A stretch of 64,000 nt of DNA from a virus (lineage: Duplodnaviria; Heunggongvirae; Uroviricota; Caudoviricetes): positions 109,076 through 173,075 of IMG/VR virus record IMGVR_UViG_3300033121_001869; one strand, written 5' to 3'. Each line of letters begins with the position of its first letter. Within the stretch, counting starts at the first letter, position 1. The notes below the pieces were generated by a model. It saw only the letters and a list, made by a program, of their open reading frames with translations, had not been told where the DNA came from and did no database searches. The position numbers were made by a program, and so were the translations under genes. Positions 4,357 through 53,167 of this stretch are shown in pieces.

Positions 4357-4467
4357 AGAACAAAATTAATATAATATATTTTACCAATGAAAATCTTTTA
4401 CCACCTGAATATTTGGCAGAAATTACATCAGATGTGAATATAATACTTGAAAAAATTAAAAAATATA

Positions 4468-15207: not shown

Positions 15208-15966
15208 ATGATAGGAGATAAATATGCAAATCTAATAGTGTTAGAAGAAGTAAACAAAAATAAAAGGAATGAAAGAATGTGGTTATGTCAATGTGATTGT
15301 GGCAATAAAAAAATTATTAAGGGATATAATCTCAAAATTGGCAAAACAAAATCTTGCGGATGTATTAAAACGGGAATTAAGCCAAAAAATAGGATCAATC
15401 TAAAATTAAATGACTTCATTTTAATCAAATTTATTGAAATGGATAAAAATAGAATATCCTTGTGGTTAGCTAAGTGTAAATGTGGGAAAGAAAAAATAAT
15501 TAGAAGTAATACTAGGGTAAAATCTTGCGGGTGTAGGAAGAAGGAAACTGATTCCAATCGAAGTGGTAAAAATAATCCTAGATACAATCCACTACTAAGT
15601 GATGAATCGAGAAATGATAAACGATTATATGAAGGTTATGATAAATGGAGATTTCAAATAAAAGAAAAATATCAATTTCAATGCATAGTCTGTGGAGATG
15701 ATCGCGGCGGAAATCTAATCAGTCATCATTTAAATTCCTATCATGATAACATAGATGAAAGACTAAGCACAAAAAATGGTGTCTGTCTATGTGAAATATG
15801 TCATAAAAAATTTCATAAAGAATATGGATATGGTAAAAATAATAAGTATCAATTCTTTGAATTTATGAAAAAATATTGTATTTTTGTAAAAAATAAAAAT
15901 CATAATGAGTCAGTGGAAAGTTTCAAAAGAGATAATAAGGATTTTTACACATCCATCAGCGGATAA
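15208..15966 (+). CDS. HNH homing endonuclease (free-standing) with N-terminal Cys-rich DNA-binding module
   Basis: N-terminal KYANLIVLEEV...WLCQCDCGNKKII...KTKSCGC module common in phage HNH endonucleases. C-terminal HHL..N..LC..CH..FH HNH motif. Confidence 0.7.
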   Translation: MIGDKYANLIVLEEVNKNKRNERMWLCQCDCGNKKIIKGYNLKIGKTKSCGCIKTGIKPKNRINLKLNDFILIKFIEMDKNRISLWLAKCKCGKEKIIRSNTRVKSCGCRKKETDSNRSGKNNPRYNPLLSDESRNDKRLYEGYDKWRFQIKEKYQFQCIVCGDDRGGNLISHHLNSYHDNIDERLSTKNGVCLCEICHKKFHKEYGYGKNNKYQFFEFMKKYCIFVKNKNHNESVESFKRDNKDFYTSISG

Positions 15967-16993
15967 TTTATCACTATGCAAAGTAGGATCATATCAAGTT
16001 GTTGTTCAGAAAGGATTATATAATGATGGTGATGAAGTAATTTTCGCCCCAGAAAAATCTATATTAACAGGCGATATCAAAAATGAATTTGAAAAATACC
16101 TTGCTGGTCCAACAAAAGACAGAGTAAAAGCAGTTCGTCTGCGTGGTGAAATTTCTTCTGGAATTATCATTCCGAAATTTCTTGTTCCTAATATGAATGA
16201 TTACCCAATTGGGTTAGACATTTCAGAATTATTGGGCATCACACATTACGAACCGCCAATTCCAACACAGTTAGCTGGTAAAGTTAAAACCTATGATATG
16301 CCATTCGTTGGATCTCATGATTGTGAGCACGTCGGTGTATATGTTAATGACTTAATTGATGGTGAAAGGGTTGTTATTACCGAAAAATTACATGGTAGTC
16401 AATTTATTTTAGCTCATAATGTTGATGTAAATGAAACAATTGTTTCTTCAAAAGGTCTTTTGAAGAATGGATTAACAATTGAAGAAAGTGATGATAATGC
16501 ATATTGGATTGCTTCAAAAAATGAAAATTTAATTGAAAAAATCAGACAAAATTTTGAATCTGGTGTAATTCAAATTTTTGGTGAAGTAATTCCAATTCAA
16601 AGTGGATATACATATGGTCAAACAAAGCCTACTGTAAGAATATTTGATGTTCGATTAAATGGTGAATCAATTCCATATGATGTAGTTCCAACTGATTTAA
16701 GAAATATTTGGGTCCCAGTTGTTTTTGATGGAAATATCAATTTAGATAAAAAGGAAATTGTTATATTTTCTGATCCTGAAAGAGGAATTCATAAAACTAA
16801 AATCGATTTCATTTTACCAACAAATATTGTTGAAATGTGCAAAGGAAAGGAATTGGTGTCTGGAAACGAATTACATATCCGAGAAGGTGTTGTTATTCGA
16901 CCATACATTGATAGAAATGCTAAAGATGGAACAAAACTTCGATTGAAAGTAATCAATCCAGCTTACAAAGAAACAGGTGAAGAAATTAACTAA
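15905..16993 (+). CDS. ATP-dependent RNA ligase, Rnl2 family (putative)
   Basis: Nucleotidyltransferase motifs in order: I VITEKLHGSQF (KxHG, as in T4 Rnl2 KIHGTN), III IFGEVI, IV RIFDV, V IREGVVIRP, and a C-terminal lysine motif KLRLKVINP. Confidence 0.55.
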   Translation: MSQWKVSKEIIRIFTHPSADNLSLCKVGSYQVVVQKGLYNDGDEVIFAPEKSILTGDIKNEFEKYLAGPTKDRVKAVRLRGEISSGIIIPKFLVPNMNDYPIGLDISELLGITHYEPPIPTQLAGKVKTYDMPFVGSHDCEHVGVYVNDLIDGERVVITEKLHGSQFILAHNVDVNETIVSSKGLLKNGLTIEESDDNAYWIASKNENLIEKIRQNFESGVIQIFGEVIPIQSGYTYGQTKPTVRIFDVRLNGESIPYDVVPTDLRNIWVPVVFDGNINLDKKEIVIFSDPERGIHKTKIDFILPTNIVEMCKGKELVSGNELHIREGVVIRPYIDRNAKDGTKLRLKVINPAYKETGEEIN

Positions 16994-17563: not shown

Positions 17564-18289
17564 ATGAAAAAGAAGATATTAGTATTTAGTGGTGCTGGAA
17601 TTTCAAAAGAAAGTGGAATTGACACTTTTAGAGATTCTGGTGGATTGTGGAACAATTATGATGTAATGAAAGTAGCACATATTGATGCTTGGAAAAAAGA
17701 TCCACAAACCGTCATAGATTTTTATAATTTTAGAAGAAAAGATGTGGGCTCAGTAAAACCAAATAAAGCTCATAAAATTTTGGCAGAATTGGAAAAATAT
17801 TTTGATGTTACAATAGCTACACAAAACGTCGATCCTTTACATGAAATGGCAGGTTCTACAAATGTAATACACCTACATGGTGAAATAACAAAACTAAGAA
17901 GTGAAAAAGATCCAAACTTAGTTGTTGAATGGAAAGAAGAATTAAAACTTGGACAATTAGCAGATGATGGAGAACAATTGAGACCTGATATTGTTTGGTT
18001 TGGTGAAGAATTAAACTATGATCGTGTTAACAAAGCTATGGATGCAGCAAAAAATGCTGATGTGTGTGTAATAGTAGGAACTTCAATGCAAGTAGCTCCA
18101 GCAAATCAAATACCATTTTTGATTCCAGAAACCGCATTAATATACTATGTCGACCCAGGAGACAAAGATTTTTACTTACCAAAAATGAGAGAATTTTTCT
18201 TCTATCATATTCAAAAAAATGCAACTGAAGGGATGCAAGAATTAAAAAAGGATTTATTTTCAACTTTTAAAATAAAAACGAATGCATAA
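17564..18289 (+). CDS. Sir2-family NAD-dependent deacylase or ADP-ribosyltransferase (sirtuin) lacking the zinc ribbon
   Basis: GAGISKESGIDTFR Rossmann motif, TQNVDPLHE, a catalytic His in IHLHGE and RPDIVWFGE. The Cys4 zinc-ribbon cysteines normally flanking this region are absent. Confidence 0.75.
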   Translation: MKKKILVFSGAGISKESGIDTFRDSGGLWNNYDVMKVAHIDAWKKDPQTVIDFYNFRRKDVGSVKPNKAHKILAELEKYFDVTIATQNVDPLHEMAGSTNVIHLHGEITKLRSEKDPNLVVEWKEELKLGQLADDGEQLRPDIVWFGEELNYDRVNKAMDAAKNADVCVIVGTSMQVAPANQIPFLIPETALIYYVDPGDKDFYLPKMREFFFYHIQKNATEGMQELKKDLFSTFKIKTNA

Positions 18290-25006: not shown

Positions 25007-25890
25007 TTCGATGAGATATTGTTTATATGAATATAAAGATACTCGCCGGTATCTTTTAATTGTAAATTATAAAAATTAGAAGTTTGCAATACAAAATCCA
25101 CTAATGTTTTTGTACCTATATCACTATTTAAAAAATTATTTAATTCATCCACAATGCTTTCATAGTAAACAAAACATCCATCATCATCATTAATAACATA
25201 TTTATCAATTACAGAGGGTAAAAACTGAGCATAATTAGATCCCAATTTATTATGATTTATATAATATGAAATATTTTCAATTAATTGATTTTTAATGTAT
25301 TCAGCGATTTTTGATCCGACCATTTCAATAAATTTCTCAGGAGTTAAATTAATTGTTTTTAGTAATAATTGGCCATATAGTGTATTATGATATCCATAAG
25401 AATATTTAATTATCCACTCTTCGGGACTATCATTTAGAGCTGATACCCAACCCTCACCACCAAGTGAACATGAATAATTTAAATTTAATTTATCATTTAA
25501 ATAATATAAATAAGTATCAACATACCCATTAACATCATTTAGATGAAATTCATCAATAAACATTTTGAAATCTTGTGAAATCAATTTAGATACTTTACTA
25601 TCAAAAAGTTTTTTTATTATATCCAATGTGTAACCAGTTACATCTAGTATCTTTTGCATATCAGAGAAATCCTCCTCTGGGTCTGAATCACCACTAGCTA
25701 AATTTGAAAAATATGATTCATAGTAGGATGATAATGATTTTATCTTTTTTGCTAAATCACTTCTGTGTCTTTTAAAATATGAAATTGTTAAAGAAACTTC
25801 ACCATCTGATAAGTTATCTATTTTATCCCAATTAGATAAAAATTTATTATCGAGCTTCTCATTTAGAAATTGAGAATATTTTTTTATCAT
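25003..25890 (-). CDS. hypothetical protein
   Basis: ORF of 295 aa. Confidence 0.5.
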   Translation of the reverse strand: MIKKYSQFLNEKLDNKFLSNWDKIDNLSDGEVSLTISYFKRHRSDLAKKIKSLSSYYESYFSNLASGDSDPEEDFSDMQKILDVTGYTLDIIKKLFDSKVSKLISQDFKMFIDEFHLNDVNGYVDTYLYYLNDKLNLNYSCSLGGEGWVSALNDSPEEWIIKYSYGYHNTLYGQLLLKTINLTPEKFIEMVGSKIAEYIKNQLIENISYYINHNKLGSNYAQFLPSVIDKYVINDDDGCFVYYESIVDELNNFLNSDIGTKTLVDFVLQTSNFYNLQLKDTGEYLYIHINNISSN

Positions 25891-26723
25891 GCTTTTCCAT
25901 ACTTTTTATAAATAGACATAAAAGATTCGAATTTCTTAACAACAGATCCCTGTCCATCTTTCTTATTCCAAACTTTATTTAAAAAAAGTAGTTTATTTTT
26001 ATCAATTTTACAATTTCTGTTAGAGATATTACCTTTATTAAAAAATCCTATCATTTCCTCCATACTCATAGTAGGATGATGTTTATCAAAATTAGGATCT
26101 GGATGTGACCACCCAAACTTAAATAACCAATTTAATAAAGCCTTTTTATTAAAATCCTTATAGTCCTCGGTTGTTCCATTTCCACTTCTTTTGGAAAGTT
26201 TTTTATTTCCCTCAAATAATAAACCAGCGTGTATTACCTCTGGAAACTTTTTCTCTCCCTCAACCTTACATATTTCCTCCCATACCTTTTCTTGCTTTGG
26301 CAAATTACTAATATGGTCAACTCCTCTTATTATATGTGTTATGTCATAATCATAGTCATCCAAAGTTGAGCAAAAGTTATAAGTTGGAAATCCATTTTTT
26401 CTAAGAATTACCATTTTATAAGATCCCATATCTAACTCTAATCCATTCTCACCTTCAATTCCTATTTTTTCAGCAACTTCTTTATATCTATCCAATCTTT
26501 CAGATTCACGGAAAGTTATATCATAATCCAATCCAAATTCATTCATTTGATCATAGATATAATCTATATACTCTTGTTTATTTCTTTCTTGATCCGTATC
26601 ATCAATACGAAGTATAAATTTACCATTATTAGCTCGAGCCATTAAATAATTTAATAAAGCCGTTCTTAATGTGCCTAAATGAAAAATCCCCGTTGGTGAA
26701 GGAGCCACTCTAGTAACTATCAT
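25887..26723 (-). CDS. truncated class I glutamyl-tRNA synthetase core (GluQ-RS/YadB-like, no anticodon-binding domain)
   Basis: VAPSPTGIFHLGTLRTALLNYL...FILRIDDTDQER carries the HIGH motif. KLSKRSG is the KMSKS motif. GFPTYNFCSTLDD is conserved. The protein ends where the catalytic domain ends, at about 278 aa. Confidence 0.7.
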   Translation of the reverse strand: MIVTRVAPSPTGIFHLGTLRTALLNYLMARANNGKFILRIDDTDQERNKQEYIDYIYDQMNEFGLDYDITFRESERLDRYKEVAEKIGIEGENGLELDMGSYKMVILRKNGFPTYNFCSTLDDYDYDITHIIRGVDHISNLPKQEKVWEEICKVEGEKKFPEVIHAGLLFEGNKKLSKRSGNGTTEDYKDFNKKALLNWLFKFGWSHPDPNFDKHHPTMSMEEMIGFFNKGNISNRNCKIDKNKLLFLNKVWNKKDGQGSVVKKFESFMSIYKKYGKA

Positions 26724-27728: not shown

Positions 27729-27760
27729 TTTGGTTTTTTACATAATATTTATTAAATTTG
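27729..27760 (+). promoter_or_regulatory. candidate Bacteroidetes-type promoter TTTG-N20-TAAATTTG
   Basis: TTTG at 27729..27732 and TAAATTTG at 27753..27760. The ATG of the downstream gene is at 27770. Confidence 0.4.
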
Positions 27761-27769
27761 TACTTCTCT

Positions 27770-28459
27770 ATGGACTATAAATTATTAGACGTTGCCTTAA
27801 CTGGCTCAAGAAAATCAGGAAAACATGGTGTAGCTCAACTATTTAAGAAGTTAGGAGTTCCTATTTTTGATGCTGATACGGTACTTAAATACCTTTTAAA
27901 CTACAAACCTGAATTAATAAATTCTGTCCAAAAACAATTTGGCAAAGAATATGTATTTAATGGATATATAAATCCCATCGCTTTCGATACTGATGATAAA
28001 TTCAATCATCTAATAGATTTAGTGGAGTTTGAATTATTTGAAGCCTATGATAGATTCAAAAAGAAAACTGCTGAAAAAGAAAGTGGTTACCAATACACTA
28101 TGTTTTTATCCTCACTTATTTATGAGAGAAACTGGGTTAAAAAATTTGACAAAATAGTTTGTATTATGTCACCTAAACAAGATAGAATGTTTCGATATCA
28201 ACAAGAAACATTTGATGCTGTTTCGACAGTCAATGCCATTTTTGAAAATGAAATGAATGATTATAGAAAAAATCAAATGAGTGATTTCATTATTCACAAT
28301 TATGATGGATCAATAGAAGATATTTTAACTCAAATTCAAAAAATTGACGATAAATTAGTTGAAACATATTTACTTAAAAAAAGTAGAAATGTATTCAGCG
28401 ATACAGATAGATATGAAAGGGAAGATTATATAGATCTTAAAAATATTTTAACATTTTAA
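27770..28459 (+). CDS. CoaE-like (dephospho-CoA kinase family) P-loop kinase with a degenerate Walker A
   Basis: VALTGSRKSGKHGVAQLFKKLGVPIFDADTV parallels the CoaE N-terminus GLTGGIGSGKST...IDAD, but GK is followed by H rather than S/T. Confidence 0.45.
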   Translation: MDYKLLDVALTGSRKSGKHGVAQLFKKLGVPIFDADTVLKYLLNYKPELINSVQKQFGKEYVFNGYINPIAFDTDDKFNHLIDLVEFELFEAYDRFKKKTAEKESGYQYTMFLSSLIYERNWVKKFDKIVCIMSPKQDRMFRYQQETFDAVSTVNAIFENEMNDYRKNQMSDFIIHNYDGSIEDILTQIQKIDDKLVETYLLKKSRNVFSDTDRYEREDYIDLKNILTF

Positions 28460-28827
28460 TGAGTAAAACTATTGATATTATATTAAGCGGTGATAAATTT
28501 AAACCTAGTAGTCTATGTTTAGAAACTAAAATATTAGCAGAATATGGATCTATAAGTAAGAGAGGAAGATATAAAGGAAAGCCATCACCTTATGGATTAG
28601 CTTATATGATTATACCACTTGATTCTCTGACAGAAACTCTTGATAATTTAATAAGTAACATTAATGATTTAAAACAATCAGGTGTTAGTGATATTGAATT
28701 AGATTCTGTTTTTTGGGATGATGAAAAAAGTGATTTTTTAAATTATAAAAAATCAGAGAAAGTAACAAAATTACTCAACAAAATTAATAGTATATTAAAT
28801 GGAAACAGCTATAATAAGAGTGAATAG
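28459..28827 (+). CDS. hypothetical protein
   Basis: ORF of 122 aa. Confidence 0.45.
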   Translation: MSKTIDIILSGDKFKPSSLCLETKILAEYGSISKRGRYKGKPSPYGLAYMIIPLDSLTETLDNLISNINDLKQSGVSDIELDSVFWDDEKSDFLNYKKSEKVTKLLNKINSILNGNSYNKSE

Positions 28828-29260
28828 GGTTGGTGGACAAAAGTTACAATTTGTCAAATTGATTAAATCCACAACTGGATGGGGACTAAAAGAAGCTAAA
28901 GATTGGTGTGATAAGGTTAATGAATCTCCAGGTCAATACTTTTATATTCCTGTTTTCTCAGTAGAACAATTTAAAAAAGAAATTAAACTAAATGGTATTG
29001 ATGAAGATTACAATCTGACCATTGATGATAGAAATTCTATTAGAAACACTAATTTAGTATTATTGGGTCTTGGTGACAAATCTGATAAAATAAATTTGAT
29101 TTCAGAAAAATTATCCTTATCTTTGTATAATGAAATAAAAAATAATAATTCAAAATCTACCATCTATGAAATATGTAAAGCATTCACAGAAGATTTACTA
29201 GACGGCATAGATGAATTTAATCTCGACAAATTATTAACTAAAACACAAGAAAATGGCTAA
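28799..29260 (+). CDS. protein with N-terminal ribosomal bL12 (L7/L12) C-terminal-domain-like module fused to an unknown C-terminal domain
   Basis: AIIRVNRVGGQKLQFVKLIKSTTGWGLKEAKDWCDKVNESPG...EQFKKEIKLNGIDE aligns to the bL12 CTD [36 protein letters not shown]...EALKKALEEAGAEVE, with GLKEAKD identical. It has no bL12 N-terminal dimerisation or L10-binding domain. Confidence 0.55.
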   Translation: METAIIRVNRVGGQKLQFVKLIKSTTGWGLKEAKDWCDKVNESPGQYFYIPVFSVEQFKKEIKLNGIDEDYNLTIDDRNSIRNTNLVLLGLGDKSDKINLISEKLSLSLYNEIKNNNSKSTIYEICKAFTEDLLDGIDEFNLDKLLTKTQENG

Positions 29261-29651
29261 CGCTTGGAGGCACTCAAAATCATCAGCTTTAAAATTTGGT
29301 GGAACACCCGAAGATTATATGCCAATTCATGAAAAAATGGATTGTTCTAAGGCATATATCGCAGATAATCGACACAGAGCTCTAACACATAATATGTTTT
29401 GGGTAAAAGAAGTAATGATTCCAATTTTCGGATATATGTTTAAAAGACAATCTGATAATGTCGAAGTTTGCACAAAAGATATTTGTGAGCAACACATATT
29501 AGAGGATTTTGGAATGAAATTTATTCCAACTGCTCAAGACTATCTTGAAAATATGGAATTCAAAGATTGGATGCAAAATGGTATAATTGACTACCCATCG
29601 TCATTTAGAAAAATTAAAGAAAAAAGTTTTAAATCTGTAATTAAAGACTAA
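29253..29651 (+). CDS. hypothetical protein
   Basis: ORF of 132 aa. Confidence 0.45.
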   Translation: MANAWRHSKSSALKFGGTPEDYMPIHEKMDCSKAYIADNRHRALTHNMFWVKEVMIPIFGYMFKRQSDNVEVCTKDICEQHILEDFGMKFIPTAQDYLENMEFKDWMQNGIIDYPSSFRKIKEKSFKSVIKD

Positions 29652-30349
29652 TGCAAGTAATTTCTAAAAAAAATAGTAGAAAATTAATATCTGGACAAGT
29701 TTATGAGACAGATTATTTTCATAATGATCCAAATCAAAAAGGATATGGACTAGGTAGAATATCCATAAAAGGGAACGGGTACTATAAACTAGACAACTTT
29801 AAAATGGTTGATGGTAGTGATTTTCCGCAAATAATATATGATACAAGAACCTATGTAAGTTATAAGGCGGAAGACCTTAAAAAAGGTGATATAATTGTTT
29901 GTATTCGAGACAATCAATACAAATACCTTATAAGGGATGGAAAATATCGAATTCAGGATATAACTGAAAGAAAGACAAAATACTCAACTGAAAAACTAAT
30001 GAAACTTGAGGGTTATAATAAATGGCTTAAGTGTAACACCTGGTCATTTAGAAAATTAACTTTACAAGAAACAAGAGATTTAGCTTTATCTCAAATTTTT
30101 GATAAGGCTGAGAATTTCTCTGTCGAATTCAAAACAAAATATGAGCAATCTGACAATAAAGAAAAAATTCTTATTGAAACAATTGCATCTTCTATTTTAG
30201 ACCCATACAGACATCACTTCGATATTATTGACTGGGGGTTGCAAAAAATCAAAAAAGACTTTAAAATTGACAGAAAAGACTATGACCATCTGTTAGGATT
30301 GACATTAGGTGAAATACTATCCAAAGTCGAAAACTTTCCAAAGAAATAA
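29651..30349 (+). CDS. hypothetical protein
   Basis: ORF of 232 aa. Confidence 0.5.
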   Translation: MQVISKKNSRKLISGQVYETDYFHNDPNQKGYGLGRISIKGNGYYKLDNFKMVDGSDFPQIIYDTRTYVSYKAEDLKKGDIIVCIRDNQYKYLIRDGKYRIQDITERKTKYSTEKLMKLEGYNKWLKCNTWSFRKLTLQETRDLALSQIFDKAENFSVEFKTKYEQSDNKEKILIETIASSILDPYRHHFDIIDWGLQKIKKDFKIDRKDYDHLLGLTLGEILSKVENFPKK

Positions 30350-30420
30350 ACTATAACTAAACATAAATTATTAAAATGATATTTTTTTTGAAGAAGACTT
30401 TGAATTAAACTGGTAATAAA

Positions 30421-31020
30421 ATGGAAAAAGAAGGAAAAATGATTACAGATTGGTTAGACCAAAATGGTGATCCGGAAGTAGAACAGTTCATCGAAAAAAA
30501 CCTGGACATTACAGAAAAAGTGCGCTTGGCGCTCGACGAAATTATTCAAGAAGTAAAATCAAAACAGAAAGAAATTCAAGTTTTGAAAAAAGAATTACAA
30601 AAAAAATCTCAAGAAGCATTCTTCAAAGGAGCGAAAGAAATATTTAATACTTGTCCGGATTTTAAGTCAATATCTTGGACACAATACACACCATATTTCA
30701 ATGATGGTGATGAGTGTAAATTCTCCGCAAACATTGACTATCCAGAGATTAACGAAGATGTTGATGGTTTTAATGAAAAATCGCTAAATCCAAATTTAGT
30801 AGTTAATCAAGGTAACTGGAATAGAAACCTAAGAACATATGAAGGAAGGGTAGAGAAACCAAATCCTGATTATAATGTATCTTTATCCAAAGCTGTTGAT
30901 TCAATGTCAAAATTTCTTCAAGTATTTGATCAAGATTTCTATAAAGAACAATTTGGTGATCACGTCAAAGTTACAATAACTCCCGAAGGTGTAAGTACCG
31001 AAGAGTATGAACACGAATAA
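30421..31020 (+). CDS. hypothetical protein (compositionally atypical, GC-richer)
   Basis: ORF of 199 aa with GC-rich stretches (for example gcgcttggcgctcgacgaa) that are unusual for this window. Confidence 0.5.
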   Translation: MEKEGKMITDWLDQNGDPEVEQFIEKNLDITEKVRLALDEIIQEVKSKQKEIQVLKKELQKKSQEAFFKGAKEIFNTCPDFKSISWTQYTPYFNDGDECKFSANIDYPEINEDVDGFNEKSLNPNLVVNQGNWNRNLRTYEGRVEKPNPDYNVSLSKAVDSMSKFLQVFDQDFYKEQFGDHVKVTITPEGVSTEEYEHE

Positions 31021-31060
31021 CAATATTTTTTAACAACTAAACAAATAAAATTTTTTAACA

Positions 31061-32956
31061 ATGATTCAAACATTAATTTCTTTTTGGTGGGTAATTCCAA
31101 TTTTACTTTCACTAGTTTTTTACAAACTCATTTTCCGTCTTTTTGGTATCGTTATCATACCAGAAGATAAAATTGGATTGGTAACCAAGAAATTCGTTCT
31201 TTTTGGAGCCAATAAGCAACTTGATGATGATCGTATCATCGCAACAAAGGGCGAAGCAGGTTTTCAAGCTAAGACACTAGCACCCGGTATTCATTATTGG
31301 TATTGGCCTTGGCAATATGAGATTGATCAACAATCCTTCACTATTATTCCTGAAGGACACATCGGTCTTATTAACTCTAAAGATGGTGCTATTATTAAAA
31401 CAGGTCGAATCCTTTCACGAAAAGTGGAATGTAACAACTTCCAAGATGCTGAGGCGTTTTTGAATAACGGTGGTCAAAAAGGTCGTCAATCAGCTTTTAT
31501 CCCAAATGGTGTTTATAAAATCAACACTTTATTATTTGAAGTCTCAACTGTGCCACAAGTACAAATTCAAGATAATATGGTTGGTATTATTACAACCTTG
31601 GATGGTGAACCACTTGAACCTGGTACGATTGCTGGTAAATTGGTTGATAATGCTAAACACAACAACTTCCAAAATTTTGATGAATTTCTTAACGAAGGTG
31701 GTAATCGTGGTTTACAACAACAAATTATCCAAGCAGGTTCTTACAACTTAAACCCTTGGGCTATTCAAGTTGAAGAATTACCTATGACAGAAGTACCAAT
31801 TGGTAATGTTGGTGTTGTTATGTCTTATTATGGTGATGAAGGTGTTGATGTTACAGGTACCAACTTCAAACATGGTAACCTTGTATCAAAAGAACAAAAA
31901 GGTGTTTGGGCGGACCCTTTAAATCCTGGTAAATATGCCATCAATAAATACACCACAAAAGTTGAGGTTGTTCCAACAACAAACTTGGTTCTTAACTGGG
32001 CAAATGCTCGTAACGAATCTCACAATTTGGATAAAAACCTTAACACAATCACTGTTCGTTCAAAAGATGGTTTCACATTTAATTTGGACGTATCACAAAT
32101 TATTCACATTCCCATGAATGAAGCTCCTAAAGTTATCGCTCGATTTGGAAATATGAATAACCTTGTATCACAAGTTCTTGAGCCGACAATTGGAAACTAT
32201 TTCCGTAACTCAGCACAAGGATCTGATGCTATCTCTTTCTTAACTTCACGTCAAGAAAGACAAACTGAGGCTAAAGCTCACATTTCAAAAGTATTGGAAG
32301 AATATAACGTTTACGCCGTAGATACTTTGATTGGTGACATTACGCCTCCCGCAGCCCTAATGGAAACATTAACCTCTCGTAAAATTGCACAAGAGCAAAT
32401 CATTACGTTTGAGAATCAGAAAAAAGCACAAGTTCAACGTCAATCTCTTGAAAAAGAAACTGCAATTGCAGAAATGCAAAGAGAGGTTGTAAAAGCCGAA
32501 CAAGGTGTTATGATTTCTGAAAGAACTGCTGACGCAGTTGTTAAGAAACAAAGAGGTGATTCTGACGCTATCAAAATCGCAGCTGAAGCAGATGCACAAG
32601 CCACTGAATTGAGAGCAAAAGCTGAATCCACTCGTATCGCCCTTACCGGTCAAGCAGAATCTGAAAAGATTTTGGCAATTGGTAAAGCAAACGCTGAATC
32701 TTATGAATTAGCTGTTAAAGCAATGGGTAAAGAAAACTTCACCAGCTACAAAATCACCGAAGAGATTGGAAAATCTGGTATCCAATTAATGCCACAAGTA
32801 TTAATCGGTGGTAGTGGAGAAGGCGGTGTCAATGGAACTATGAATGGACTGTTGGCATACGAAATGTTGAACACTGTTAAAAAATCAATTCAATCTACTA
32901 CGGCAGAAATTGTCACACCAACAACTGAGCCTAAAAAGGATGAAAAAAAGAAATAA
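31061..32956 (+). CDS. flotillin-like SPFH/band-7 domain protein (YqiK-like)
   Basis: N-terminal TM helix, tandem SPFH-like segments, and a C-terminal Ala/Glu-rich coiled coil (AEADAQATELRAKAEST...). Codon usage is visibly GC3-richer than in neighbouring genes. Confidence 0.75.
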   Translation: MIQTLISFWWVIPILLSLVFYKLIFRLFGIVIIPEDKIGLVTKKFVLFGANKQLDDDRIIATKGEAGFQAKTLAPGIHYWYWPWQYEIDQQSFTIIPEGHIGLINSKDGAIIKTGRILSRKVECNNFQDAEAFLNNGGQKGRQSAFIPNGVYKINTLLFEVSTVPQVQIQDNMVGIITTLDGEPLEPGTIAGKLVDNAKHNNFQNFDEFLNEGGNRGLQQQIIQAGSYNLNPWAIQVEELPMTEVPIGNVGVVMSYYGDEGVDVTGTNFKHGNLVSKEQKGVWADPLNPGKYAINKYTTKVEVVPTTNLVLNWANARNESHNLDKNLNTITVRSKDGFTFNLDVSQIIHIPMNEAPKVIARFGNMNNLVSQVLEPTIGNYFRNSAQGSDAISFLTSRQERQTEAKAHISKVLEEYNVYAVDTLIGDITPPAALMETLTSRKIAQEQIITFENQKKAQVQRQSLEKETAIAEMQREVVKAEQGVMISERTADAVVKKQRGDSDAIKIAAEADAQATELRAKAESTRIALTGQAESEKILAIGKANAESYELAVKAMGKENFTSYKITEEIGKSGIQLMPQVLIGGSGEGGVNGTMNGLLAYEMLNTVKKSIQSTTAEIVTPTTEPKKDEKKK

Positions 32957-32978
32957 TCTAAACAATTAGTTTCTTTCA

Positions 32979-33007
32979 ACCCCGATGAAATCATCGGGGT
33001 TTTTTTA
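32979..33007 (+). terminator. strong intrinsic terminator
   Basis: ACCCCGATGA-AA-TCATCGGGGT perfect hairpin followed by TTTTTTT. Confidence 0.8.
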
Positions 33008-34123: not shown

Positions 34124-35236
34124 TTAAATCGAGGTAAGGAATATCTTTCGATTAGTTCTATCAATCGCTAAAACTTTAACTCTTATTTCTTGATCAGGTA
34201 GAAATTTTCTACCCAATTTTTCCAATTCAGATGAGTGTATTAAACCCATTGTCTCGTCATCCAATAAGATTAAGGTTCCAAAGTTTTTATTATCTTTAAC
34301 CCTACCATCAATAACTTGTCCAATTTTAATATTATCCCATAGTGATTCACGAATAACTTGTGTTAGGATAATTTTGTCTTTAATAATTTCCTTAACATAG
34401 AAGTCAATTTCCATACCAGGTCGTATATCAGAAATTCTTTCTCTCCAATCAGACTGAATATTAGCCTTATGAATCATTCCTGTTAGACACTCATTAAATT
34501 CAACAAAAACACCAAATGGAGTTGTACCCGTAACATGACCATTATATACCGTTCCTGTCTTCAGTTCTTCAATTGCTTGTGGTATAAGTGTTTTTAAATA
34601 CTTTCTACGGCTAACAATATAAGTTCCTTCTTGGTCAGAATATGATTCAATCATAGCTTCGATTTCCTTCCCGACAATTGAATTTGGATCGTATAATTTA
34701 TTTATACCCGCCAAAGTATTTGGCATAAATCCCGGTAATGTAATACCATCATGTAAAATATCAACGTCATATCCAGCTGGATTCAAATTTTTAATTTGAA
34801 TCATAACAACTAAATCTTCGTCTAGTGATTTTAAATGTTCATGAGCTCTTGACTCATAAATACCACAAATAGATCCTTGTAAATAGTAATTTTCCTCATT
34901 AACTGAAACAAGTAAAATATCAATTCTATCACCAATTTGTGTATTTTTTAAATACTTAACCTCACTGATTCTATTTTCAATATAAACATCATCTTTAAAT
35001 CCATCAATGGAAAAAACATGTTGATTAGCAGAAATTCCCTTGTATATCCCCGAAACAATTTCATTCTCTACGGGTTGGTTAATTTGTACGTTGGTTAGTA
35101 ATTTTAATAAATTTTGGTATTCGGGTGTGTTGGGATATTTAACTTTACGACCTCGACTTTTCCTTTTTTGATCCTGTAATATTAGATCGTCCCAAAATTG
35201 TTTTTCATCAATTTCAATTGATTTATTTTCTATCAT
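34124..35236 (-). CDS. ribosomal protein bS1-like protein with multiple S1 RNA-binding domains (truncated relative to bacterial S1)
   Basis: Several S1 OB-fold repeats. Domain 1 GIYKGISANQHVFSIDGFKDDVYIE...ESRAHEHL parallels E. coli S1 GTVVAIDKDVVLVDAGLKSE...REKAKRHEAW. Later domains carry G.V.G....FG.FV...L.G.IH signatures. Confidence 0.7.
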   Translation of the reverse strand: MIENKSIEIDEKQFWDDLILQDQKRKSRGRKVKYPNTPEYQNLLKLLTNVQINQPVENEIVSGIYKGISANQHVFSIDGFKDDVYIENRISEVKYLKNTQIGDRIDILLVSVNEENYYLQGSICGIYESRAHEHLKSLDEDLVVMIQIKNLNPAGYDVDILHDGITLPGFMPNTLAGINKLYDPNSIVGKEIEAMIESYSDQEGTYIVSRRKYLKTLIPQAIEELKTGTVYNGHVTGTTPFGVFVEFNECLTGMIHKANIQSDWRERISDIRPGMEIDFYVKEIIKDKIILTQVIRESLWDNIKIGQVIDGRVKDNKNFGTLILLDDETMGLIHSSELEKLGRKFLPDQEIRVKVLAIDRTNRKIFLTSI

Positions 35237-36776: not shown

Positions 36777-39700
36777 TTAACCAGTTGTTACATAATAAGT
36801 TGTTACATAATAATTATCTTCATCACAATATATCTTCAATCCATTTCTAAAGATAGAACCCAATAATGATACTTGGTTAGAATTAACCAACAAGATTAGC
36901 TCATACAATTCGGATAATATCCCCGGGCTACCATATTGACCAATTCCATTAGCTAGTGATGCTGGAATAAGTGAGTATATATCGTCAAAAGCATTATCAA
37001 ATTCAGAGTCACTTGTTAATGTTAAAGAATTTAATGATAGATAAGATTCAAAATTACTCCAATTAGGTGAACTACCAGTGGCAGATATCGAACAAGTTCC
37101 AGATATATCCGTAAGAAAATCAGAAAATGGAGTTTTAATGATAAATGCATTAGATGGACCTATCTTATATTGTAGATAGGAAACAAATTGTGGTCCACAA
37201 TCTGGACAACAAAGATTTTGCTCAGATTTTGGAATTGTTAATCCATATGTAATACTACCTAAAATATCCTCAGCATCATAATTATTAATTTCAAATAAAT
37301 ATCGTAAAATTGACTTACAAGATACTTTTTGACTAGCTCCTATTTTAACATCACAAACATCTGATTGATATTTAACTGACAATACATAATGACCCTCTTC
37401 AATTTGAGTATGTATATTTTCATCTCCGGGCGGATATACTCTAAAAATAAAATTTTTACTTAAAAAGATATCTTGTGATAATATTATATCGATTATTTGC
37501 TGATAATAATCTTCCCAATCCTGTTGTGTATTCCCACTTGGAACATCTAATATAGCATCAAAATCAACTGTTACATCGCCAGATTGGAAATGGAATGTTA
37601 TTTCACTACCATCTGTTTCCAATATAAATTGAACATCACATAAATTACCCGTGTCGTATAAAGATGAATTAGTGAATAATTCAATATCATAAAACAAAGG
37701 CATATAATATCCACTATGTCGAAAGAATTTTTTAAAAACATTTGATTTTTGATTATTTAAATTTTTCAAAATTTTATCATCCTTCTTTATATTGAATATT
37801 TCAACACCAAGTGGTAAATCATTATAAAAATCAATCTTCTCAAGATTGTCTATCTGACCATTGATTAAATACCTATATGGTTTTAAATTGGTTTTATCTA
37901 TTGTGTTTGGTTTATATATGAGTGAATTATTTTTTAAATTAAAAGAATCTGGCTCTTCACAGATTAAAATATATGGTAGATTTTCCAAATTATTGCGGAA
38001 GCTGTATTTAGAAATAGATCCATTTTCCTCAATAATAACATATGAGGTATAATCAACAAACCCATACAATGAATCTAAATCATTTATTTGTCTTATAAAA
38101 TTGGCAGCTGTCAATCTGCCATTTGTTTCCTTATATAAATAATCTCTTTCAATATTTTTGGTTTCATCCATGATATTATCATTACCTAAAATTGTATTAT
38201 CATTAATACTTATATTAACTAAAATATTTTTCCATTTTTTATTGATGAATATAGTAATACCACTATCAATAGTCAAATCTGGATTAAATTTACAATAGTA
38301 ATAACAGTCATTTATCTTAATAATTGAATTATCATCAGGTTGATAATTATAAGTTGTATCGGGAACAAAACTATAAATTCTTCTCCAAGATGTAGATTCT
38401 CCCGGTATTTCATCCGAATTTGTACCTATATCAGTAAAATATAAAACATCATTATAACAAACAAATGTATTTGGATCATAAATAGGAAGATTTTTATCCC
38501 ACAATTGAACAGGTATCCATTTTGGGTAAGAACTTCCAACTCCTACTTGAGAAGAAACCTCTGACCAATAATTTGTGACACTTGATGATTGTATTTTTCG
38601 ATTATATGTTAACGGACGAATACCAGATGGGACAGAATAATTAGACATGTAAAATCTATTATTGTAGATAACATATGTTCCGCTTGAATATGTCGTTCCT
38701 GGATTCCAAAAATCAAAACCACTTGGGTTATAATTATAGTAATATTCGTCGAATTTATAAACCCAAGATGATGTTGATCCAGATGTATTATAAGATGACA
38801 CAGAATTCCAAAATTGATTAAATGTAGTTTCAATTTGATAGTTTGTTGATAATGTCGTAGGATTATCATAAGGATTTGATATAGAATCTCCAATAATAAC
38901 TCTAAAAATTATACCTTCATAAAAAACAAAATCATTAATTTGATATTGCTTATCATGCTCCCAATTTTTAATTACATCCCATTGCATTTTCTTTCTCCAT
39001 ATGCCTGGTTGAGCATAAGATGATGTATGATACATTTTATCTAAAACAACACCATATCCAGCAGTTTGTAATGCGCCATATGTTGCAACAATTGATGCAG
39101 TTGCTTGATATTGTGGTGTCACATAAGGATAGAACTGATCTATTTCTAAATAATCACCAATATTGAAAACTGATGGTGTAGCTGAATATGATGTTAATAA
39201 TGATAATTTATTATTAGATTTTGTCGTATCAATAAAATAATCCCATTCATATGGTTTATATAGTCCACCACTATCAGATACCATCCAATCATTACTACTC
39301 AAAAGTATAGAAAATTTATAATCTTGAAATTTATTACTGGACACCAAATTAATATTCTCAATAAATGTTGAATTATATTTAATGTTATCAACTTCGAAAA
39401 GTCTAAATTTTAATCCTCTAAATAATGTAGTATTTGGAATAACATTGTCACCTGTTTCGAACCAAGAATATTTCTTTCGATTCATTACTATCTCACCATC
39501 AATAAATGACTGTGTAGTTGAAAAAAATAAATCAAAATAATTAAAATCATATGAATAATCTAATCCAGAAAGTGAGTAAGATCCAAGTTCTAAATATTTA
39601 TCAATCTCAAATCTATATGAGGAATCTTGAAATTGTCCGAAATTTTTCTCAACATGTAAAGAGTGGAATAAATATGAAGTAGTTCCCGAATTAACTGTAT

Positions 39701-41711
39701 AGAAATAATCTAAATTTCTAGATGTCCTATCAGGAATTAGATTTTGAGTATCGACAGTTCTATTAAATTGCTCATGAATATCATTATTATTCAATAAATA
39801 TGGATAATCATATGATGATAATGAATTTTGATATACCCATCGAGTATGTATTGGATTCTTCCTCCAAATATCGGAAAGCTTTTTATCCAAAATTCTAAAA
39901 GTTTCCCAATTTGCTGTATAATCAGAAGCTACCGGAACATTTTCAGTTTTTCCCTTAAATATAAAATCATCAAAATCTTGTGGTGAGGAAGAACTTCTTA
40001 AATCTGTTAACATCATTTTAGATTCCTCAGTTTTATTTAAATCATTTCTCTTTTCATATTCAAATCTAGAAAATTCAGTGTCTATGATATTTGTATCAAA
40101 ATCTTTAATATCGCTAAATTTAGCTCGATATATTTTAAAATTTTTCGGTGGATTATTAGTTTTTATTAAAAGATCAATAGAGTTTGTATATCCATCTTCT
40201 CCTGAATTAGTATAATATGTAAATTTACTATTTATGGCATATTTAAATCCATAATCCGAGACAACCTTAACATAACCATCTTCAATAATTAAATTGTGAT
40301 AAATACCATCAATATCAATAATATTAACATCAGCAAATGTAAAATCTGATATTTCATATGGGGTGCCATCTATTTTGACTATTTGATTTTGTTCATTAAT
40401 ATAACAAGTTTTTTGATTCAAGTAAGATTGCTGTCCTGATAAATTTATATCTGATATAATTCTATATTTTGTAACAACTGGATTATTAACACTATCAATT
40501 ACTACCTTTTTATTATTAGAACCTTTACTAACTGCACTAACCGATGTCTCTAATGTTTCTTCGAATTTTTTAACTATATAAAAATCACCATTGTATTCAA
40601 CCCACATATCTATATCAGATCTATACCCATCAACAAAAGGATCTCCATGAGAATCACTTGAAATAATATTTCCAGATCCTGTTGGACCATAAATAGTCAC
40701 ATCATTATGTAATCTTGGTAAGACAAAAGGAGTTATTTTATCAATAACTTCTAATTCATCTAAATAAAATCCAGAATATCGATTTAAAGACCATTTTCTT
40801 ATTGAAGTTGGAGATGAAGGGGTATCATCAAAAAGATAACTAATATTTAAAATATGTGGAAATATGACTTTATTAACTCTGAATCCATCCAAAAACATTT
40901 TCTCAAAGTCAAATAAATTATTTTCATTTTCTAAATTCTCATCTAAATAGAAAGATTTTGAAACATATCCACCACTATCATAATCAATGCCATTCCACTT
41001 ACTAAATTCTAATTCATTAAAATCAATCTCTAAAGGAGCAACTGGAAAATTAGCATTATTAGAGAAATTATTATAAATCCACTCACCAAATAAAGTATTT
41101 TTAGTTAAGTCAAATATCTTAACTGTTTTTAATTTTTGTAAAAATTCAGTTCTGAAGTTCTCTCTTGTCAAATTTATAAGTCCAGGACCATCAACTCTAA
41201 AAATAATAAAGTATTTGGGAATGGAATGTTTAAAAACATACAATGGCGCAAAATATTCAAATTCTTCTTTATAATTTTTATTATCAATTATATTTCGAGC
41301 ACCTGATAAATATGTATCATCATATTGTGATGCAAAATCTGTTGACATATTATCATTATCATTATCATATTTTATAGATAATGCCAAATCAATAGGGAAA
41401 TCCTTAAAAAAGTAAGGAATTAATTCATCCAAATAATTGTTTTTATTGAACTGTACCTTCTTAAATCGAGTTGACGATAACTCAGGCGCTGAATCAATGC
41501 TCTCCATATAAAAATTATATTGAGAATCAACCATAATTTTTATATTACCTGTTAATCCAGTATTTGTTCTTAATATTGAGAAACTTCGCAACTTAAAATG
41601 TTTTTTAAATATATATTTAAAAGTTAATGGCTTAATGAGATTTATAAAAAGAATAAATGAATTATCAGATAATAGAATAGATTTTCTTTGGGATTTTTTC
41701 ATTGAAGCCAA
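36777..41711 (-). CDS. large virion structural protein (1644 aa; tail or baseplate-associated); true start probably internal
   Basis: Long uninterrupted ORF. The first about 60 codons are Lys/Phe-rich and look like AT-rich non-coding. M60 (nt 41534) or M69 (nt 41507) is a more plausible start. Confidence 0.65.
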   Translation of the reverse strand: MASMKKSQRKSILLSDNSFILFINLIKPLTFKYIFKKHFKLRSFSILRTNTGLTGNIKIMVDSQYNFYMESIDSAPELSSTRFKKVQFNKNNYLDELIPYFFKDFPIDLALSIKYDNDNDNMSTDFASQYDDTYLSGARNIIDNKNYKEEFEYFAPLYVFKHSIPKYFIIFRVDGPGLINLTRENFRTEFLQKLKTVKIFDLTKNTLFGEWIYNNFSNNANFPVAPLEIDFNELEFSKWNGIDYDSGGYVSKSFYLDENLENENNLFDFEKMFLDGFRVNKVIFPHILNISYLFDDTPSSPTSIRKWSLNRYSGFYLDELEVIDKITPFVLPRLHNDVTIYGPTGSGNIISSDSHGDPFVDGYRSDIDMWVEYNGDFYIVKKFEETLETSVSAVSKGSNNKKVVIDSVNNPVVTKYRIISDINLSGQQSYLNQKTCYINEQNQIVKIDGTPYEISDFTFADVNIIDIDGIYHNLIIEDGYVKVVSDYGFKYAINSKFTYYTNSGEDGYTNSIDLLIKTNNPPKNFKIYRAKFSDIKDFDTNIIDTEFSRFEYEKRNDLNKTEESKMMLTDLRSSSSPQDFDDFIFKGKTENVPVASDYTANWETFRILDKKLSDIWRKNPIHTRWVYQNSLSSYDYPYLLNNNDIHEQFNRTVDTQNLIPDRTSRNLDYFYTVNSGTTSYLFHSLHVEKNFGQFQDSSYRFEIDKYLELGSYSLSGLDYSYDFNYFDLFFSTTQSFIDGEIVMNRKKYSWFETGDNVIPNTTLFRGLKFRLFEVDNIKYNSTFIENINLVSSNKFQDYKFSILLSSNDWMVSDSGGLYKPYEWDYFIDTTKSNNKLSLLTSYSATPSVFNIGDYLEIDQFYPYVTPQYQATASIVATYGALQTAGYGVVLDKMYHTSSYAQPGIWRKKMQWDVIKNWEHDKQYQINDFVFYEGIIFRVIIGDSISNPYDNPTTLSTNYQIETTFNQFWNSVSSYNTSGSTSSWVYKFDEYYYNYNPSGFDFWNPGTTYSSGTYVIYNNRFYMSNYSVPSGIRPLTYNRKIQSSSVTNYWSEVSSQVGVGSSYPKWIPVQLWDKNLPIYDPNTFVCYNDVLYFTDIGTNSDEIPGESTSWRRIYSFVPDTTYNYQPDDNSIIKINDCYYYCKFNPDLTIDSGITIFINKKWKNILVNISINDNTILGNDNIMDETKNIERDYLYKETNGRLTAANFIRQINDLDSLYGFVDYTSYVIIEENGSISKYSFRNNLENLPYILICEEPDSFNLKNNSLIYKPNTIDKTNLKPYRYLINGQIDNLEKIDFYNDLPLGVEIFNIKKDDKILKNLNNQKSNVFKKFFRHSGYYMPLFYDIELFTNSSLYDTGNLCDVQFILETDGSEITFHFQSGDVTVDFDAILDVPSGNTQQDWEDYYQQIIDIILSQDIFLSKNFIFRVYPPGDENIHTQIEEGHYVLSVKYQSDVCDVKIGASQKVSCKSILRYLFEINNYDAEDILGSITYGLTIPKSEQNLCCPDCGPQFVSYLQYKIGPSNAFIIKTPFSDFLTDISGTCSISATGSSPNWSNFESYLSLNSLTLTSDSEFDNAFDDIYSLIPASLANGIGQYGSPGILSELYELILLVNSNQVSLLGSIFRNGLKIYCDEDNYYVTTYYVTTG

Positions 41712-41952
41712 AGATGATGGATTAGATGTAAATATTGATTATAGTTCGGATAGAAAGCTAATTGTAGTAAAAATAAAAGATCCTTTGGAAATTTACGGAC
41801 ATTTATATGTTTTAGAACATAAAAAAGAAATGAGGGAAATGATTGATAGATTATTATCTATTGATAATAATATAATCTCATCTAAACTATATACAAGTGA
41901 TAAATCTCTAATACTGTATATTCGAGTGGATAAACTTGATAAAATTATTTAA
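41635..41952 (+). CDS. hypothetical protein (opposite strand, between two large structural genes)
   Basis: A 105-aa ORF filling the gap between the minus-strand genes. It conflicts with the extended N-terminus of the 1644-aa ORF. Confidence 0.25.
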   Translation: MRFIKRINELSDNRIDFLWDFFIEAKDDGLDVNIDYSSDRKLIVVKIKDPLEIYGHLYVLEHKKEMREMIDRLLSIDNNIISSKLYTSDKSLILYIRVDKLDKII

Positions 41953-44900: not shown

Positions 44901-45118
44901 TTTATAGAATTATTAAGTCTTTCAATTTCCCCCTTAAGATAGGTAAAAGATGGTAATGAGTATGTATTTATCACACCATTAGCATCAAATATGCGAACAT
45001 CAACAGAGGGATCGACTGTGGTTGACAATGAATTTATTTTAGATAGTATCTCAGTAATATTTTTATTATAAGATATTACTTGTTCAGCAACAGTTGCAAA
45101 AGAACTCTGAATTGGCAT
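41945..45118 (-). CDS. large virion structural protein (1057 aa; baseplate or tail)
   Basis: Long ORF in the structural block. The size is similar to T4 baseplate wedge gp7, but no motif-level identification was possible. Confidence 0.65.
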   Translation of the reverse strand: MPIQSSFATVAEQVISYNKNITEILSKINSLSTTVDPSVDVRIFDANGVINTYSLPSFTYLKGEIERLNNSINSLYSIDTTGALIQTTSQNQFKKIITVDLNREPNAIDTLSIVGQFKSEKNWFFDGLLNPILKIEFDLSDKIENNVRKCLVRRYIVEFSKDADGNFTNLGQSALDSFNSLYKQKNNIDIQEFERWYKTTPGIVDPIFPKYDEQVFDLEPNTLLYDGVFNVIKIEEDTLNRKLWYHLNTLDFLINETSEVKQLSIGNELIINQAISNTRYRIVEISTSESNPRVRLERIEGLQPIPVGIGTLKIYSPVIYTKKVRISIGYNERNVTFIKPVNADNNLVAKDWSLGTGYYTNDLRVSSNDSYNGQTMEQFYVDVVYDYGLVLQDLVAKKTPNKLSGSPNIVVLDPNNFKVVQVNKHLTDTPDSNLLKNKHNYQISLKNEIRQIQEALDDRNKKLKITKFTSSSERKKFELEIDDLNKKKVSKSKLLSTTVQEIIDLSRQSTTKIDPKYRLRGFWNMPEAVSTRGTLPQEIVQFRIQYRYTSKDGKEPSVETFNVTENNQQKTAAFSNWNEFKTDVRKRVFDKSNNTYTWQIEDIENADTPNINQIDIAINSGERVELRIKSISEVGWPESPVESDWSEILSVDFPDDLNNVLNDTDFILNEASKEDLKVSVQNDLVANGLNDLLADIVTINNKVYTSSSDRMLSGFKDENGTALDLFEYLQKLETRVKSLEEKIKRAKGELEIIIIRNNQEFVIGNNSETTFNVECEDYLEPFTGTGIPTGRVYSNNIYVIKDFALRVRNKSVDSVLGLLSNRTYANNSDVYNTGVPQSFWVNNQDELIFSDVSGVSKTQVNNQFIWLVNYEAVTSQTNVVTRLSENIGNSFTSLNNNSITNILSLNEYNVGYSENQPLSFVSSNNSLLDNSKWRDTTLSVGSTTKFLTTIHPVINEIDDITETNQDKVKTLDGGGEIVIPINIYFKMNALDNTQTGVNYEYINLNKQTQTVKHIKKLIFFLENEAENKPFVFTLTFNLNRNKVTYASKPKNYSTIVK

Positions 45119-53093: not shown

Positions 53094-53155
53094 AAAAGTA
53101 GGAAGTAGGTGTGGCGCAACCTGTAAACGGCAGAACCTGTTTACCCTACTTTTTT
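53094..53155 (+). ncRNA. structured leader or attenuator-like RNA element upstream of smpB (or terminator of the upstream operon)
   Basis: Direct repeat GTAGG-AA-GTAGG gives two alternative partners for the downstream CCTAC. Inner hairpin GTAAAC-ggcagaacct-GTTTAC. Duplicated AACCTGT. A U6 run follows. Confidence 0.35.
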
Positions 53156-53167
53156 AATAGAAATAAA

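Follow-up and report, generated by a model that had tools for sequence, protein, structure and literature searches.

The C-terminal domain (CTD) of ribosomal protein bL12 (PF00542) carries on its helices 4 and 5 a conserved, positively charged site that is shared by IF2, EF-Tu, EF-G and RF3 (PMC6753160). Viral proteins with this domain and without the bL12 N-terminal domain (NTD) were described by Mizuno et al. in 2019: the domain is found alone or embedded in a larger protein, the contact residues are kept, and the contexts vary (PMC6375957). Examples are a 98-aa protein of Ralstonia phage RSB3, a 106-aa protein of Dinoroseobacter phage DFL12phi1 and a 418-aa protein of Salmonella phage FSL SP-076 (PMC6375957). 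Variable fusions and independent acquisitions were noted in that study, and the domain was proposed to act as an interface for translation factors; association with 70S ribosomes was seen only for the FSL SP-076 protein, through one mass-spectrometry peptide, and a tagged pull-down failed (PMC6375957). Here, we analyzed a 64,000-nucleotide stretch of a Caudoviricetes genome (positions 109,076 to 173,075 of IMG/VR record IMGVR_UViG_3300033121_001869; hereafter, the window) and describe a gene encoding a 153-aa protein that joins a bL12 CTD, its head, to a family-specific helical domain, here called the C-domain.

Among cultivated phages, bL12 was found by Mizuno et al. only in genomes of <80 kb with Proteobacteria as hosts (PMC6375957), whereas members of the present family are confined to a syntenic block in large to huge phages, whose hosts are probably Bacteroidota, and share a conserved C-domain of their own. 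A tblastn search with the 153-aa protein against 50,697 phage records returned only the uncultured phage genome LR756502.1, and the protein is thus not a close relative of the examples cited above. L7/L12 was also listed by Al-Shayeb et al. in 2020 among the translation genes of huge phages; in the part of that article at our disposal it appears as an annotation, and domain architecture, missing anchor and C-domain are not discussed there (PMC7162821). Phage proteins that have only the CTD of bL12 and the presence of L7/L12 in huge phages are therefore already published. What is new is the definition of a separate family with two domains, the constancy of its locus within a clade of large to huge phages, a Bacteroidota signature in helix 4 and a conserved motif in the C-domain. 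Our literature search found no paper describing the combination of a bL12 head with a four-helix domain.

Results

The N-terminal half is a complete bL12 C-terminal domain

Residues 2 to 76 of the 153-aa protein are a full bL12 CTD (Table 1). Pfam family PF00542 (Ribosomal_L12) was matched over aa 8 to 41 with 27.5 bits (gathering cutoff, 25.9; E = 3.9e-6), and the top matches of a phmmer search against all PDB sequences were solely bL12 chains, T. maritima L12 being aligned over aa 10 to 63 (E = 1e-3). A profile built from 46 family members spans the whole CTD of the T. maritima and E. coli bL12s (profile positions 5 to 74; E = 3e-10 and 5e-9, respectively). By hhalign, the N-terminal domains (N-domains) of the family aligned with the CTDs of 77 real bacterial bL12s over 68 columns with a probability of 98.6% (E = 4e-15); these diverse bL12s were extracted from bacterial genomes by a genome scan, a query with E. 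coli bL12 having given enterobacterial sequences alone. When every six-frame segment of the window was searched with a hidden Markov model (HMM) of the bL12 CTD, the open reading frame (ORF) of the 153-aa protein was the sole match (E = 7e-12).

The structural data are in good agreement with this assignment. An AlphaFold2 model computed on the family alignment (predicted local distance difference test [pLDDT], 82) places strand 2-8, helices 15-26 and 30-42, strand 47-52, helix 55-64 and strand 73-76 in the b-a-a-b-a-b order of the bL12 CTD, followed by four further helices. Foldseek matches in the PDB were limited to ClpS and the bL12 CTD, with identities of 22 to 26% to bL12 and 9 to 13% to ClpS. 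The core T26-G-W-G-L-K-E-A-K-D35 equals E. coli T76-G-L-G-L-K-E-A-K-D85 with a single change, W for L. The second half of the phage CTD has diverged from bL12 (helix 6 and the "EEAGA-VE-K" end). A first-pass annotation, made from the sequence alone, had read the first ~70 aa as a bL12 CTD with a shared TGxGLKEAKD core; sequence, profile and structure comparisons all uphold it on both counts.

The factor-binding surface is the most conserved part of the head

The entropy table of the family alignment identified K15, L16, V19, K20, K23, G29, L30, K31, K34, D35 and D38 as the most conserved columns. They belong to a near-fixed patch comprising K15, L16, F18, V19, K20, I22, K23, T26, G27, G29, L30, K31, E32, A/S33, K34, D35 and D38, whose E. 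coli equivalents are K65, V66, V68, I69, K70, V72, R73, T76, G77, G79, L80, K81, E82, A83, K84, D85 and E88, respectively. The fold, the helix 4-turn-helix 5 motif TGxGLKEAKD and the basic and hydrophobic contact positions are all common to the bL12 CTD and the phage head. The factor-contact residues K65, V66, I69, K70 and R73 of E. coli, whose conservation the first-pass annotation had proposed to examine, correspond to K15, L16, V19, K20 and K23 in the 153-aa protein; the helix 4/5 contact positions are indeed the most conserved columns of the family, with Bacteroidota-specific variants. Otherwise, family members are only ~26 to 40% identical, and the rest of the head is highly variable outside the patch. 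Judged by this pattern of conservation, selection has evidently preserved the helix 4/5 patch across the family.

The head is of the Bacteroidota type

Bacteroidota bL12s are the closest to the phage head. An HMM of the family N-domain ranked them at the top, with 19 of the 20 best scores and a mean of 51.7 bits versus 45.1 bits for the others (Mann-Whitney p = 5.5e-9), in a bL12 sample that was preselected for similarity to the query, which should weaken the contrast rather than create it. Three helix-4 positions of the sampled bL12s separate Bacteroidota (L66, V69 and K73) from the other phyla (I/V66, I69 and R73). The phage residues L16, V19 and K23 are of the Bacteroidota type; among 45 family sequences, L occurs at the first of these positions in 43, V at the second in 39 and K at the third in 44. 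Capture of the head from a Bacteroidota-type rplL gene would best explain these sequence data.

Only two records were matched by the window in a blastn search, the uncultured phage genomes LR756502.1 (642 kb) and LR745206.1 (635 kb). Al-Shayeb et al. assigned their genomes of >634 kb to the Mahaphage clade, with predicted Bacteroidetes hosts (PMC7162821); by size, LR756502.1 and LR745206.1 would fit the largest members of that clade, the accession itself having 0 occurrences in the text. A Shine-Dalgarno core (GGAG, GAGG or AGGA within 20 bases upstream) was present at 1 of 52 window genes, and the G+C content is 25 to 30% throughout the window. Both features agree with a host from the Bacteroidota in which translation starts without Shine-Dalgarno pairing; scarce cores fit Bacteroidia-type initiation as described in PMC9976891. 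We conclude that the clade of large to huge phages, in which the nearest complete genomes measure 635 to 642 kb, probably infects Bacteroidota.

The ribosomal anchor and the hinge are missing

The N-terminal dimerization and uL10-binding domain of bL12 (PF16320) is absent from the 153-aa protein, which begins at strand 1 of the CTD. An HMM of this domain found nothing significant among the six-frame segments of the 64-kb window (best E, 0.07). The start codon directly follows a TAA stop codon, the stop-to-stop segment itself beginning at position 28799, so that an in-frame N-terminal extension is impossible. No flexible Ala/Gly/Pro-rich segment resembling the bL12 hinge occurs in the 153-aa sequence: in the AlphaFold2 model, strand 73-76 passes straight into helix 78-88, and 1 to 2 residues link the two domains. 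The NCBIfam bL12 equivalog model TIGR00855 scored 20.9 bits against a cutoff of 84.4, with a match limited to aa 9 to 40.

The protein is therefore not a bL12, since three features that define one, the NTD, the hinge and a full-length equivalog match, are lacking. It also differs from bL12 in standing outside an rplJL operon context and in being fused to an unrelated four-helix domain. Without a dimerization/uL10-binding domain or a hinge, it cannot sit on the stalk in the manner of bL12. The absence of both elements, and the impossibility of the usual seating on the stalk, had been stated in the first-pass annotation and are borne out by these searches.

We also considered whether the upstream ORF (28459-28827) might be a split-off bL12 NTD. 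This candidate was rejected: the ORF has no Pfam, PHROG or NTD-HMM match and is not conserved in LR756502.1.

The C-terminal half is a conserved four-helix domain

Residues 77 to 153, modeled alone, gave a confident four-helix domain (pLDDT, 93.5; predicted template modeling score, 0.71). A BFVD search with this domain returned no match (best E, 2.6), and Pfam and PDB sequence searches returned nothing meaningful. The ~80 aa of unknown fold to which the first-pass annotation saw the head fused thus form a four-helix domain without detectable relatives. A profile search with the C-domain found only 7 proteins, all of 127 to 147 aa as in the family, and 5 of the 7 carry PF00542 in the precomputed Pfam column; this weakly suggests, the search yield being small, that the C-domain may be confined to the fusion with a bL12 head.

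Within the family, the C-domain has a conserved patch composed of R82, K85, L86, L89, G90, L91, G92, D93, D96 and I98. R82 is invariant, G90 is a glycine in 44 of the 44 sequences with a residue there (one has a gap), and K85, L89, G92 and D96 are near-invariant across the 45 sequences. This patch forms a helix-hairpin-helix-like turn.

Two possible origins of the C-domain were tested and rejected. A circular permutation, by which the C-domain would be the bL12 NTD, found no support in hhalign (0.03% against 77 NTDs and 0.04% against full-length bL12); no Ribosomal_L12_N match occurred in 37 C-domains of the family, and none in the PDB profile search. The visual likeness of "...LDxEQLDKLL" in the C-domain to "LTVxELxELVK" in the NTD did not survive hhalign. 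An internal duplication, in which the LGLGD hairpin would be a degenerate second copy of a ten-residue stretch of the head, was dismissed on an hhalign probability of 0.07% between C-domain and N-domain.

The family occupies one gene block in a clade of large phages

An exhaustive search of 1.84 billion representatives gave 394 matches, of which ~45 are full-length relatives of 127 to 183 aa; the family comprises about 45 clusters at 50% identity. P0001, which is 95% identical to the 153-aa protein, is found on 7 metagenomic contigs with the same neighbors. LR756502.1 encodes a syntenic orthologue of 170 aa, and 12 IMG/VR contigs of 69 to 476 kb hold the gene in the same block. The gene order of this seven-gene block (Table 1) recurs in LR756502.1 and in the 12 contigs. 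The family is found at a single conserved block of genes in this clade of large to huge phages. On a further contig of 518 kb (L024), we found a head-like match only, with no neighbors in common.

The bL12-head gene overlaps the upstream ORF by 29 nucleotides and the downstream gene by 8 nucleotides, with overlapping start and stop codons on both sides. A strong terminator-like hairpin lies directly 3' of the SPFH/Band-7 gene, which ends the block, and a promoter scan gave nothing above chance.

The DUF6915 gene (29253-29651, plus strand), which adjoins the bL12-head gene downstream, is the best-conserved gene of the block (70 to 74% identity across the clade). In several relatives, DUF6915 follows the bL12-head gene directly or one gene further downstream; it is missing from that position in L012, L013, L014, L017, L019 and L023.

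The bL12-head protein is 28 to 40% identical across the syntenic contigs, versus 60 to 74% for its neighbors, and the gene thus evolves much faster than those around it. It is a real and maintained gene, as indicated by ~45 full-length relatives, by synteny and by a ratio of nonsynonymous to synonymous substitution rates (dN/dS) of 0.32 versus its closest relative. All 7 amino acid differences from this relative lie in the bL12-like head (window 28799-29026 versus L001:10001-10228), and 4 of the 7 (Q14K, L21V, K23Y and S24T) fall in or beside helix 4. The dN/dS ratio was 0.61 for the head, 0 for the C-domain and 0 to 0.07 for the neighboring genes, a contrast that comes from one pair and from small counts (8.5 nonsynonymous versus 3.5 synonymous changes).

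Table 1. Features of the bL12-head locus and other annotated genes of the window
Feature	Position	Strand	Basis
CDS of the two-domain protein (bL12-CTD-like head plus family-specific helical domain), 153 aa	28799..29260, stop codon included	+	ORF list, sequence
N-terminal domain, aa 2-76: complete bL12 CTD fold, b-a-a-b-a-b	28802..29026	+	Pfam, profiles, hhalign, AlphaFold2, Foldseek
Helix 4-turn-helix 5, aa 15-42: KLQFVKLIKSTTGWGLKEAKDWCDKVNE; counterpart of the bL12 surface for translational GTPases	28841..28924	+	Family conservation
C-terminal domain, aa 77-153: four helices, no detectable relatives	29027..29257	+	
Conserved C-domain motif R82-x2-(K)L-x2-L-G-L-G-D-x2-D-x-I98, here RNTNLVLLGLGDKSDKI	29042..29092	+	Family alignment
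Co-directional block: CoaE-like kinase, ORF122, bL12-head gene, DUF6915, ORF232, ORF199, SPFH/Band-7	27758..32956	+	ORFs, Pfam
Terminator-like hairpin: 10-bp stem, 6 G-C pairs, T run	32978..33001	+	Terminator scan
DnaJ-like protein	4447-5205	+	
Sir2-family protein	17564-18289	+	
GluRS/GluQRS-like catalytic core, 277 aa, without anticodon-binding domain	25887-26723	-	
rpS1-like protein, 369 aa, about four S1 domains	34124-35236	-	
NAD-dependent DNA ligase	45470-47338	+	
Sigma-70 family factor, regions 2 and 4	50668-51279	+	
SmpB	53111-53611	+	
Full IF3, N and C domains	57128-57655	+	
ClpP protease	59366-60061	+	

bL12 heads in non-ribosomal bacterial proteins

The motif TG(L/W)GLKEAKD, including the W variant of the phage head, also occurs in bacterial or metagenomic bL12-head proteins that are not ribosomal. 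These carry 2 to 7 tandem copies of the head, in many cases preceded by a signal or transmembrane segment, and all lack the C-domain of the phage family. The proteins P0009, P0012, P0016, P0019 and P0042, together with P0004, P0005, P0011 and P0049, show tandem heads (2 to 7) or a two-helix half of the head, "KIEAVKLVREATGWGLKEAKDYVD"; the half-head proteins often have an N-terminal hydrophobic segment. The use of the bL12 head outside the ribosome is apparently large and uncharacterized.

Other genes of the window

Besides the genes listed in Table 1, the window encodes YqeY-like and FKBP proteins and three very large ORFs (8171-15109, 2312 aa; 36777-41711, 1644 aa; and 41945-45118, 1057 aa). 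Scans of the window for tRNA, tmRNA and Rfam families gave no match, despite the SmpB gene. With EF-Tu as the sole probe (E, 1e-5), tblastn found no EF-Tu-family GTPase in LR756502.1 or LR745206.1. Since none was detected in these two closest complete phage genomes, any GTPase partner of the head would be that of the host.

On L010, a related contig, the homologue of the window gene at 15905-16993 is split into two ORFs (L010:1224-2012 and 3003-3713). No other window ORF in this interval has the length needed to account for the Pfam RNA_ligase match of the window, and the first of the two L010 ORFs has a weak intein-splicing Pfam match, which suggests an intein or other insertion.

Discussion

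Most plausibly, given the residues that have been kept, the phage head still binds ligands of the host bL12 head, translational GTPases foremost. We tentatively propose, at a little under even chances, that the 153-aa protein is an unattached copy of the stalk head and part of a phage toolkit for taking over translation; its ligands would be the translational GTPases of the host or other partners of the bL12 head. The head would use its helix 4/5 patch in trans on these GTPases or on another natural ligand. The four-helix domain with its R82/G90 motif would stand in for the missing NTD, either as a tether to the ribosome or to a phage partner or through a self-association that raises avidity. 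As a net outcome, host translation would be retuned, alongside the IF3, the SmpB, the S1-repeat protein and the GluRS-like core encoded in the window. Such a protein might act as a decoy that withholds factors or as a recruiter that concentrates them, the two options raised in the first-pass annotation. A precedent exists in a phage protein with a bL12 domain only, which co-purified with E. coli 70S ribosomes (PMC6375957).

Several points weigh against this proposal. The closest relative carries K23Y together with three other changes in or beside helix 4, which does not sit well with partners that vary as little as EF-Tu or EF-G, and the conservation of helices 4 and 5 is in part structural. 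The contacts between the bL12 head and the factors are weak, transient and dependent on several tethered copies. A soluble monomeric head would therefore compete poorly unless avidity came from the C-domain. Moreover, many bacterial proteins outside the ribosome, some of them membrane-anchored and others apparently secreted, contain the same head module, so that the head alone does not imply a role in translation. Finally, the tagged phage bL12-domain protein of Mizuno et al. failed as a bait in the ribosome pull-down (PMC6375957).

Among the alternatives, the protein could be a ribosome-bound substitute element of the stalk. Its C-domain would dock on the host ribosome, either on the C-terminal helix of uL10 as a single-chain stand-in for the NTD dimer or elsewhere near the GTPase-associated center, and phage heads would replace or supplement the host heads. 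The compact four-helix domain is about the size of an NTD dimer, its invariant motif resembles a binding site, and a phage protein with the bL12 domain only was present in high-salt-washed 70S ribosomes (PMC6375957). However, the C-domain has no profile likeness to the bL12 NTD (hhalign, 0.03%; Ribosomal_L12_N in 0 of 37 C-domains), and the 1 to 2 residues that join the domains in the model leave no flexible hinge, an element required for bL12 activity (Oleinikov et al. 1993, by its title as cited in PMC6753160). We regard this alternative as unlikely.

Alternatively, the protein might be a general protein-protein adaptor outside translation, such as one that serves the phage ClpP in the manner of ClpS, or a scaffold for another phage process, with the bL12 fold put to use for a new ligand. 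ClpS was the top Foldseek match (E = 0.011) and shares its fold with the bL12 CTD, a ClpP is encoded in the window, and bacterial proteins outside the ribosome commonly contain the bL12 head or its two-helix half; Mizuno et al. likewise encountered the domain in phage proteins of very diverse kinds and contexts (PMC6375957). Yet the sequence signal is that of bL12 rather than ClpS, with no ClpS Pfam match and with the lower of the two identities found by Foldseek. The conserved residues form the bL12 factor-binding motif with host-phylum-specific variants, and the ClpP gene lies 30 kb away in a separate transcription unit. This makes an adaptor role outside translation doubtful. Homology to ClpS as such, the N-degron adaptor of ClpAP, was rejected: the phage head shares its alpha/beta fold, but the conserved residues are those of bL12 instead, the likeness is at the fold level only (9 to 13% identity), and PF02617 was not matched in Pfam at E <= 1.

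A third alternative is an anti-defense decoy. The free head would soak up effectors that grasp the bL12 head, for example, the type III CRISPR RNase Cami1, and would thereby shield translation of phage mRNA from effectors of the host or of competitors. One of the Foldseek matches, PDB entry 8phj, is a structure of the 70S ribosome in which cA4-bound Cami1 and a bL12 CTD chain are both present; Cami1 cuts mRNA at the A site (PMC11229360) and is counted among L12-mediated interactions (PMC12179292). The fast divergence of the gene relative to its neighbors would suit a conflict interface, as would the confinement of all 7 differences to the head, 4 of them in or beside helix 4, and a dN/dS of 0.61 in the head versus 0 in the C-domain. 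This evidence is nevertheless purely circumstantial, the dN/dS contrast resting on 8.5 nonsynonymous versus 3.5 synonymous changes, and the helix 4/5 residues are strongly conserved family-wide rather than diversifying. Overall, an anti-defense decoy seems quite improbable.

Two specific versions deserve mention here: a phage-made stalk head installed on host ribosomes through the C-domain, which would be a new module for docking on ribosomes or factors and a single-chain stand-in for the NTD dimer on uL10, or a decoy that disarms Cami1-like nucleases. We consider it rather improbable that either holds; if true, either would be a previously undescribed viral manipulation of the GTPase-associated center. 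A functionless, decaying remnant of a captured rplL, which the shorter length relative to bL12 and the quick divergence might suggest, is extremely unlikely in view of a frame intact in ~45 divergent clusters, kept synteny, invariant residues in both domains, a dN/dS of <1 and zero amino acid changes in the C-domain versus the closest relative.

The carriage of ribosomal components by viruses is under active study, and phage bL12-head proteins still await an assigned function. The family described here is a clean test case, being small, composed of two domains and kept at a single locus by a clade of the largest phages known. If the head binds none of EF-G, EF-Tu, IF2 or a defense effector, the many non-ribosomal bL12-head modules of bacteria would need another explanation. 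If it binds one of them and the C-domain acts as a tether, this would show how huge phages intervene at the GTPase-associated center, and the same result would explain why the bL12-head module has been captured repeatedly.

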